From a virus (lineage: Duplodnaviria; Caudoviricetes): a stretch of 64,000 nucleotides of DNA. The position numbers and the translations under genes were made by a program. This document shows positions 4,962 to 6,680 of this stretch, piece after piece. The stretch covers positions 91,392 to 155,391 of IMG/VR virus record IMGVR_UViG_3300031853_000003. The stretch is one strand, 5' to 3'. Under the pieces are notes generated by a model. It was not told the origin of the DNA. It saw nothing but the letters and a program-made list of their open reading frames with translations, and searched no databases. How positions within the stretch are numbered: position 1 is the stretch's first letter; every line of letters begins with the position of its first letter.

Positions 4962-4990
4962 TTGACTTTTTGAATCAATCCGTCTATAAT
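4962..4990 (+). promoter_or_regulatory. sigmaA/sigma70-type early promoter
   Basis: TTGACT-N17-TATAAT preceded by an AT-rich 24-bp palindrome (4935-4958). Confidence 0.85.
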
Positions 4991-5042: not shown

Positions 5043-5654
5043 ATGGCTAAAGTACAACTTATCAAGAAAGCAAGAAAAGCTTGGTGCTGCCAGAAATGTC
5101 ACGCAGAGATCAAAGTCGGCGACCCGTACTACAGAGCAGAAGTCAACTTCGGTCCTGTATTCATCAGATGCACATCCTGCGGACTCAAGTCCTACGAAGC
5201 AACAACTTCCGAGTATACACAGCGTGTAGGTCAGCTCGTCAATGAGTGGGTCGACATCTACGGTGTCAACGAAGATGCTCTTGAAGACATAAAGTCCGAG
5301 ATCGAAGAGATCAGAGACGAAGTAGAGAGCCGTCTCGATGAGATGCCGGATCAGCTCAGAGATTCCAGTTCCTCAGGTGAGCTCCTCCAGGAACGTCTCG
5401 ACAATCTCGAGAGCGCATATGATGATCTCGATGCTATCGACGTCGACGACATGAAGCGTGAAGCTGTCCTGGAGTTTGACGATGATCTCGTTGAACACTA
5501 CAGAGTAGACCTGGATGAACATGACGACTTCGACTATGATGAGGTCATCGCGGACGACTCACTCGATGAAGACCTTAGAGAGCAGATCGAGTCCTCTTTC
5601 AAGGACACCCTTGAATCCGCTATCGAGGACGCCATCGGCTCGCTTGAGTACTGA
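5043..5654 (+). CDS. Zn-finger plus acidic coiled-coil early protein
   Basis: CCQKC and CTSC motifs, very acidic helical C-terminus; AAGGAG RBS. Confidence 0.7.
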   Translation: MAKVQLIKKARKAWCCQKCHAEIKVGDPYYRAEVNFGPVFIRCTSCGLKSYEATTSEYTQRVGQLVNEWVDIYGVNEDALEDIKSEIEEIRDEVESRLDEMPDQLRDSSSSGELLQERLDNLESAYDDLDAIDVDDMKREAVLEFDDDLVEHYRVDLDEHDDFDYDEVIADDSLDEDLREQIESSFKDTLESAIEDAIGSLEY

Positions 5655-5668
5655 GAGGAGAAGGCAAG

Positions 5669-6064
5669 ATGATCAAGAAGTATTATCATGCGACCAGCGA
5701 GGAGTGTGCTAAGTCGATTGTCCGTGACGGCAAGATCAAGTGCAACTACGGTGAGATCTTTCTCGCAGAGACAATCGACGATGCCCTCAAGTTCCTCTTC
5801 TTCCGACAGCTTGACAAGGTCGTCATATTCGAGGTAGAGCTTGATGAAGACAAGGTGGTTGAGTCATTTGACCATAACGCAGCATTCTTCGGCTGCAGAG
5901 CCTGGATGACGTTCGAGGACATACCTGTTACCTCTGAAACATCTGCTTACATCCAGGACATGTCGGAGATCTACCAACAGGTTAATCACAGAGTTACTCC
6001 TGATGAAAACAACGTCGCAGTTGTCGCGGGTGATGTACTGCAAGACGCTGTTTCAAACAGGTAA
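5669..6064 (+). CDS. Putative ADP-ribosyltransferase-fold protein
   Basis: N-terminal YHAT..A.SI..DG, then IFLA..DA..F and VIFEV, a pattern typical of small ART/Tpt1-like phage proteins. Confidence 0.45.
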   Translation: MIKKYYHATSEECAKSIVRDGKIKCNYGEIFLAETIDDALKFLFFRQLDKVVIFEVELDEDKVVESFDHNAAFFGCRAWMTFEDIPVTSETSAYIQDMSEIYQQVNHRVTPDENNVAVVAGDVLQDAVSNR

Positions 6065-6075
6065 CTATATTTCAT

Positions 6076-6498
6076 GGGCGTGCCAGGTTTCGACGGGGCG
6101 CGAGAACAAATAAGCTACGCTAGTATGCCACCGCTAAAGGGGCAACCTAAAAATAACTGACAAAGTTGTTTCTATTCACCCCGCTGCTATTGCTGCTCTT
6201 TTCGCAAGAAAGGCTGTAGCTTAATCAGCGATTTCGGGTACCAAAACGATATGGCCTGCTACTCGACGCATATCTGAGGTTCAAGGAAGTAGTAGCATCA
6301 CAGTTCGTCATCTCTGTAAAAGATGACTGGTGGAGCGATGAAACTTTTTCATCCCTAAGAGGGTAGCTGCCCTCAAGCTTCGGCTTGAACCAAACGACGT
6401 TGACAACCCGTACACAGCTTGAAATTTGTCTATGGCGTAAGAAATGCTTATTCAAGTATTCGTTTCGGACGCGGGTTCGACTCCCGCCACGTCCACCA
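6076..6498 (+). ncRNA. ssrA: tmRNA; tag ORF 6159-6224 encodes (A)DKVVSIHPAAIAALFARKAVA*
   Basis: 5' GGGCGTG..TTCGAC and 3' GCGGGTTCGACTCCCGC-CACGTCC-ACCA with the G3:U Ala identity pair; AATAACT-GAC resume context. Confidence 0.95.
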
Positions 6499-6680
6499 CA
6501 AGGCAAAGTGAGCCTTCTCTGATTTGCAAGTCAGGTCAATCACCGTGAGATGCGAACTCGTACAGGCCGAACTGCTCTAACGCGTGTACAAAAAGCTAAC
6601 CCGGGGTCACTGAAAGTTATAAAATACAGTGTCAAGAAACCTCGCCGGTGGGCTACGAGCAGCGCTGCACCGGCATACCT

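Follow-up and report, generated by a model that had tools for sequence, protein, structure and literature searches.

The window analysed here, a stretch of 64,000 nucleotides, is the terminal 64 kb of a 155,391-bp IMG/VR virus record from cattle rumen that carries direct terminal repeats and is rated complete. A tmRNA gene lies near its start (Table 1), called by ARAGORN at exactly 6076–6498 on the forward strand with the tag DKVVSIHPAAIAALFARKAVA followed by a stop codon. The Rfam model RF00023 matched end to end at the same coordinates (model positions 1–374, 72.4 bits, E 3e-26), well above its gathering score of 47. Given both checks were positive, the sequence-only reading of this region as a genuine phage tmRNA holds, and 6076–6498 is a full-length phage tmRNA.

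The gene begins a cluster of RNA genes, continued according to ARAGORN by tRNA-Gln, Met, Leu, Glu, Pro and Ser. Upstream, the open reading frame at 5669–6064 has its stop codon only 11 nt before the tmRNA start, and a promoter-like site found by consensus scan could drive this frame, the preceding frame at 5043–5654 and the tmRNA together. Given the location of this site and the proximity of the stop codon, the 5′ end of the tmRNA is probably generated by RNase P-type processing. On the other side, a small hairpin and U-rich run directly after the CCA may terminate transcription weakly or serve in processing, with RNA contigs noted to extend past it into tRNA-Gln. The frame at 5669–6064 was considered as a hidden SmpB and rejected, given that its product is acidic, has no Pfam match and has a single PHROG match, itself of unknown function.

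Table 1. Features of the tmRNA gene, its surroundings and the phage ClpX gene (positions within the window)
Feature	Position	Strand	Basis
Promoter-like site TTGACT-17-TATAAT, 11/12	4962–4990	+	Consensus scan only
One-piece tmRNA gene, 423 nt	6076–6498	+	ARAGORN; Rfam RF00023; family covariation
Acceptor stem, 5′ strand GGGCGUG	6076–6082	+	7/7 pairs with 6488–6494
Helix 2, 5′ strand	6094–6122	+	Pairs with ~6433–6467
Pseudoknot 1 stem (~6127–6132 with 6139–6143)	6127–6143	+	5 pairs, 3 compensatory (helix 5)
A at −4 relative to the resume codon (A86 in E. coli)	6155	+	19/19 members
Tag frame: GAC resume codon, 21 codons DKVVSIHPAAIAALFARKAVA, TAA at 6222–6224	6159–6224	+	ARAGORN; family comparison
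Invariant UGGUGGA motif	6328–6334	+	14/14 aligned sequences
Helix 2, 3′ strand, with conserved GCGUAAGAA	6433–6467	+	Family alignment
T-arm GCGGG UUCGACU CCCGC	6471–6487	+	Rfam alignment; canonical
Acceptor stem, 3′ strand CACGUCC, discriminator A, encoded CCA	6488–6498	+	Sequence
Small hairpin, then U-rich run, directly after CCA	6500–6516	+	Consensus scan only
ClpX of the phage, lacking zinc domain and IGF loop	30977–32026	+	PDB phmmer E 4e-95, gap at IGF loop

RNA structure of the tmRNA

The tRNA-like domain displays a 7-bp acceptor stem (GGGCGUG/CACGUCC) with the alanine identity pair G3:U70, a discriminator A, an encoded CCA and a GUUCGA-type T-loop, with no anticodon arm. Among the relatives described below, acceptor positions 4–6 covary while G1–G3 are fixed, and the T-stem (helix 9) shows one compensatory change from G:C to A:U. 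The long helix 2, which connects the tRNA-like domain with the body, comprises 22 pairs in three segments (helices 2–4), 13 of which show compensatory changes; together with the stem of pseudoknot 1, immediately upstream of the tag frame, this amounts to 27 pairs, 16 of them compensatory (helices 2–5). We noted a 10-nt insert (CGCTTGCTTT) at 6131/6132, in the loop of pseudoknot 1, which occurs in a closely similar strain variant (L099) and in RNA-library contigs from two studies.

Covariation was assessed on the RNAalifold structure of a 14-sequence alignment, using shuffled alignments and slid pairing partners as controls. Paired cells made up 95.7% in the family compared to 86.0% in shuffles and 40–49% in the slid controls, and compensatory changes were present in 25 of 58 pairs, a level matched by none of 500 shuffles, indicating that the RNA structure is under selection. 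This support comes mainly from the acceptor stem, the helix 2 segments, the pseudoknot 1 stem, the T-arm and one stem downstream of the tag (helix 8), in which all five pairs show compensatory changes. The region of pseudoknots 2–4 aligns poorly to RF00023 (accuracy 0.51), and neither single-sequence folding nor RNAalifold recovered these pseudoknots, leaving the model of the central part incomplete.

The tag's Ile-His-Pro codons (~6175–6180) are complementary to the invariant UGGUGGA motif further downstream, which reads GGUGGUGGA in relatives. RNAalifold proposed a pairing between the two as well as a hairpin within the tag (helices 6 and 7); we rejected both, the former on account of zero compensatory changes and the latter for lack of compensatory support.

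The tag reading frame and its peptide

In all 19 distinct members of the family, an invariant GAC opens a frame of 20–23 codons that runs to an aligned stop (TAA or TGA). Insertions and deletions within this frame are whole codons, and the +1 frame is closed after 4 codons in most relatives. Position −5 relative to the resume codon is U or G across the family, consistent with findings in E. coli, where A86 (position −4) is the main determinant of the frame and U85 tolerates C or G (PMC2481249). The frame in the window has no start codon and ends at an in-frame stop, encoding a hydrophobic Ala-rich C-terminus. That it is an artefact of ARAGORN is excluded by the conservation of frame, length and stop in 19 sequences, and the 21-residue tag read from GAC on sequence alone is thereby confirmed. 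Including the alanine, the appended peptide would be 22 residues, with VVSIHPAAIAALFAR and ...TVVMIHPAFAAFVANR as tryptic marker peptides.

The tag consensus is D-x(1-3)-T/E-V-V-M-I-H-P-A-F-A-A-F-x-A-x-R-V/I-A-A, of which the core VVMIHPAFAAF is common to the family and the best-conserved part. Codons within the tag vary synonymously among members, including those for Arg (CGG/AGG/AGA), His (CAC/CAT), Pro (CCC/CCT/CCA) and the last two Ala (GCT/GCC/GCG), and the sole tag difference in a strain variant from RNA libraries is a synonymous T>C at 6191. This synonymous variation, alongside the frame, length and stop conserved in 19 sequences, indicates that the tag is translated and selected, and the codon pattern points to selection on the core at the peptide level.

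The tag had also been described as roughly twice the usual length, which agrees with our sample of 17 Clostridia tags, comprising 9–11 codons (versus 21), rich in N/D and all ending in -AA. Judged against these sampled Clostridia, as likely hosts, the phage tag is about double the host length and carries a hydrophobic core with no host counterpart. The absence of a terminal AA, a further feature of the sequence-only reading, was correct for the window tag (-AVA) but is not a trait of the tag family, given that 10 of 11 distinct tags end in -AA (RVAA, RIAA or KAAA) and the -KAVA ending is confined to the window and its strain variant.

Relatives, hosts and expression

Relatives were identified by a conserved 3′ motif, after which a family HMM confirmed 22 more full-length copies on viral contigs. 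The family is coherent and comprises 28 loci, with 19 distinct sequences and 11 distinct tags, drawn from gut or rumen phage contigs and a prophage-like element of one cultured strain, the Clostridiales bacterium CCNA10. The relatives score 69–88 bits on RF00023, and the mean column identity of the family is 64%. The strain variant L099, on a metagenome contig, is 97% identical to the window tmRNA and has the same tag, with the 10-nt insert in pseudoknot 1. Two matches to tag-based DNA patterns (L150 and L151) were negative with the family HMM and were taken as chance, and a match in a Streptomyces genome (L096) contains no tmRNA. Among isolated phages, blastn of the tmRNA matched only 35 nt, in the TLD of the Xanthomonas phage XacN1, and megablast of 20 kb returned only tRNA matches.

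ARAGORN missed three full-length members (L095:9867–10306, − strand; L093:4930–5333, − strand; L094:2665–3068, + strand) that score 79–81 bits on RF00023, such that surveys of phage tmRNAs based on ARAGORN would under-count them. In the L093 and L094 phages, we also noted a full-length ROOL RNA (RF03087, 398–405 bits; L093:6519–7117, − strand, and L094:1675–2272, + strand) ~1.2 kb from the tmRNA, within an array of 24 tRNAs. ARAGORN further called a 93-nt 'tRNA-Ile (anticodon tat)', unusually long for Ile, at L093:1158–1250 (− strand) and L097:3003–3095 (+ strand).

Phage-borne tmRNA is itself a known kind of gene, established in Bxz1-type mycobacteriophages and the Bacillus phage G (PMC4131195), found in 402 of 18,146 phage genomes (2.3%; 133 unique tmRNAs; PMC9004378) and carried by huge phages as well (PMC7162821). 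Like those of the Bxz1 group, phage G and the marine Melnitz-type phages, the window tmRNA is a complete tmRNA located beside tRNA genes in a large lytic-type phage. Unlike the two-piece Melnitz-type tmRNAs, it is one-piece and not permuted, and it differs from the known phage tmRNAs in its rumen/gut Clostridia host range, with similarity in phage collections limited to the 35 nt of the XacN1 TLD. As far as the papers searched go, the family is previously undescribed; none of them describes this tag family or deals with the length of phage tags. The family allows short host tags and long phage tags to be compared directly.

Among the closest known systems is the chromosomal one-piece SsrA of Clostridia. 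Its tag, like that of the window tmRNA, has Ala as the last residue, and the two RNAs also have in common the G3:U70 pair, ACCA end, T-arm, long helix 2, pseudoknot 1 and A at −4. Over the 3′ 36–90 nt, the phage RNA is 80–95% identical to some hosts. In contrast to SsrA of Clostridia, phage tags of 20–23 codons contain VVMIHPAFAAF where host tags are 9–11 codons, polar and N/D-rich; the phage gene belongs to tRNA arrays of phages and has no smpB close to it, and the middle of its RNA fits RF00023 poorly.

In the complete genome of CCNA10 (AP018533.1), we noted two tmRNAs (72145–72512 and 1055837–1056241, corresponding to L101:1501–1868 and L102:1501–1905). One of the two is of phage type with a 21-codon tag and lies in a prophage-like region, flanked by terminase, portal and exonuclease genes and within a tRNA array colinear with the phage contig L093. 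The strain's own tmRNA scores 143.5 bits and has a short tag (..NNDNYAYAA). With short host tag and long phage tag side by side in one strain, CCNA10 is a tractable organism and a possible experimental system. By BLAST of 399 Clostridia genomes, the phage-type tmRNA was found only in CCNA10, with the other genomes matching in only the 3′ ~36–60 nt; the 17 host tags above were drawn from this sample. The host tmRNAs nearest in the 5′ half (L109:1189–1536 and L114:1188–1536) have the tags DNDSVAVAA and DNKTVAYAA, share the AAAUUAAAC-GAC resume context with the phage family, and may represent the ancestral type. A phage tag such as DNTETVIMIHPAFAAFMAERIAA resembles a tag of this kind into which a core may have been inserted.

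Contigs assembled from bovine gut metatranscriptomes in several studies match 6084–6491 exactly. In one run (X1), a 408-nt contig corresponds to 6084–6491 with no mismatch at a depth of 11.7, compared to 3–4 for the flanking contigs, and two further runs (X3 and X5) gave similar ratios, for an overall depth 3–8 times that of flanking contigs across three studies. This hints at a stable RNA, with the caveat that assembled contigs prove neither transcription nor ends and that DNA carry-over is possible; the phage tmRNA is probably expressed. The very high depth at 6463–6496 was discounted as a signal of this gene, as it derives from short mismatched contigs that are probably T-arm fragments of tmRNAs from other organisms, and adapter-joined ends at 6496 are not assignable to phage RNA.

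ClpX, SmpB and the fate of tagged proteins

The window also encodes a ClpX without a zinc domain, and the gap in its phmmer alignment bears out the earlier observation that the IGF-loop segment is missing. At the position of the RKH pore-2 loop this protein has RKR, and GYVG is retained. The sequence-only reading had coupled the tmRNA to this ClpX, a proposal that did not survive the check for co-occurrence. Among 25 other tmRNA-bearing records, only G005 has ClpX, and the five with a completeness of 90% or more all lack it. By ClpX, the three closest relatives (G001–G003; 67–68% identity, 55–84% complete) contain syntenic tRNA clusters with no tmRNA, which suggests that the tmRNA is dispensable in some lineages. 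Judging by this distribution, the tmRNA is not tied to the IGF-less ClpX of the phage; the -AVA ending is a quirk of the window's lineage, and neither this ending nor a link with ClpX defines the system. The notion that the tag and the IGF-less ClpX make up a single system, attractive as it is, lacks support and is corrected here.

SmpB, reported as missing from the window, was found neither in the whole 155-kb genome nor in the 25 related records. The description of the system as a 'private' one for ribosome rescue is therefore not supported, and the tmRNA would have to rely on host SmpB, AlaRS and EF-Tu.

We consider the probable explanation as a whole to be a functional phage-encoded one-piece tmRNA that serves host-dependent rescue with a long tag, probably followed by host proteolysis. 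From the observed gene identity, structure, tag frame, conservation and distribution, we infer charging, SmpB use, proteolysis and benefit as follows. The tmRNA would be transcribed together with the clustered phage genes for tRNAs and other RNAs, and its excision probably falls to the tRNA-processing enzymes of the host. Charging by host AlaRS would proceed via G3:U70, host SmpB and EF-Tu would bring it to stalled ribosomes, and translation would restart at GAC, appending Ala and the 21-residue tag. The likely benefit is additional ribosome-rescue capacity amid the many non-stop complexes that infection, host mRNA decay or RNA-cutting defences would create, and ribosome rescue with a phage-specified tag is, on the features of the gene, a sensible function. 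The tag has host-like ends (D-N/E/D-T..., ...R-V/I-A-A) around the hydrophobic core, and the Ala-rich C-terminus most likely still delivers tagged proteins to host AAA+ proteases, including ClpXP.

Other explanations concern the fate of the tagged proteins. The core may make the tag a different address, read by another protease (of the Lon or FtsH type) or an adaptor, beside or instead of ClpXP, in which case phage-tagged proteins would differ in fate or kinetics from host-tagged ones. This is consistent with the core being the best-conserved part of the tag, under peptide-level selection and absent from host tags, and there is precedent in the Mollicutes, where long tags go with a switch to Lon (PMC8403727) and the protease in use is reflected in how long the tag is and what it contains. 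The Lon-read tags of Mollicutes (27 residues in M. pneumoniae; AANKNEENTNEVPTFMLNAGQANYAFA in M. florum) are likewise long with a hydrophobic middle containing Pro-x-Phe, and the P-x-F-hydrophobic centre in M. florum loosely resembles HPAFAA. However, this similarity amounts to four residues and may be chance, and the Mollicute tags end in -AFA in hosts without ClpXP whereas the phage family ends in -VAA or -IAA in Clostridia that have ClpXP. The canonical C-terminus of 10 of 11 tag types also fits plain delivery to ClpXP, and the complementarity between UGGUGGA and the Ile-His-Pro codons could reflect a constraint at the RNA level. We regard a different address as unlikely, and give the same low credence to the core being a phage-specific address that sends rescued proteins to a second protease, an adaptor or a phage factor; if true, phages would be rewriting the fate of truncated proteins and not merely adding rescue capacity. 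Far less likely still is the original proposal, in which the -AVA tag evades host ClpXP and forms, with the IGF-less ClpX, a private system for rescue and routing. In its favour, L099 from another metagenome keeps the -AVA ending, the IGF segment is missing from the phage ClpX while GYVG is retained, and G005 has both ClpX and tmRNA. Against it, the G005 tag ends in -KAAA, -AA closes 10 of the 11 types of tag, and the records above separate ClpX from tmRNA in both directions, with no SmpB encoded. Moreover, LVA at the C-terminus performs as well as LAA as a ClpXP degron in E. coli, where a penultimate Val does not keep ClpX from acting; FKLVA was the most enriched ClpXP-dependent degron of a large screen and GFP-FKLVA showed kinetics like those of YALAA (PMC10862746). 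The claim that tagged proteins are routed away from ClpXP is accordingly not supported.

Two further explanations, both of which we consider very improbable and to a similar degree, would leave the tag with little or no role. The tmRNA could act chiefly by competition, sequestering SmpB of the host or blocking its trans-translation, with tagging incidental, as might be suggested by the TLD-only tmRNA of the mycobacteriophage DS6A, such molecules being inhibitory to tmRNA (PMC4131195), and by the lack of a phage SmpB; yet conservation here extends to the whole mRNA-like domain, the resume context and the tag frame, with selection at the peptide level, and a pure decoy could do without these. 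Alternatively, it could be a neutral passenger recently acquired from a host chromosome with no phage role, for which the patchy distribution among related phages and the 5′ half, nearest to Clostridia tmRNAs whose tags start DN.., might be cited. Against a recent origin, the family spans diverged phage lineages (with the mean column identity given above) and shows compensatory changes, the sampled host tmRNAs match only ~40–90 nt at the 3′ end with weak 5′ similarity, and the phage tag is unlike all host tags seen.
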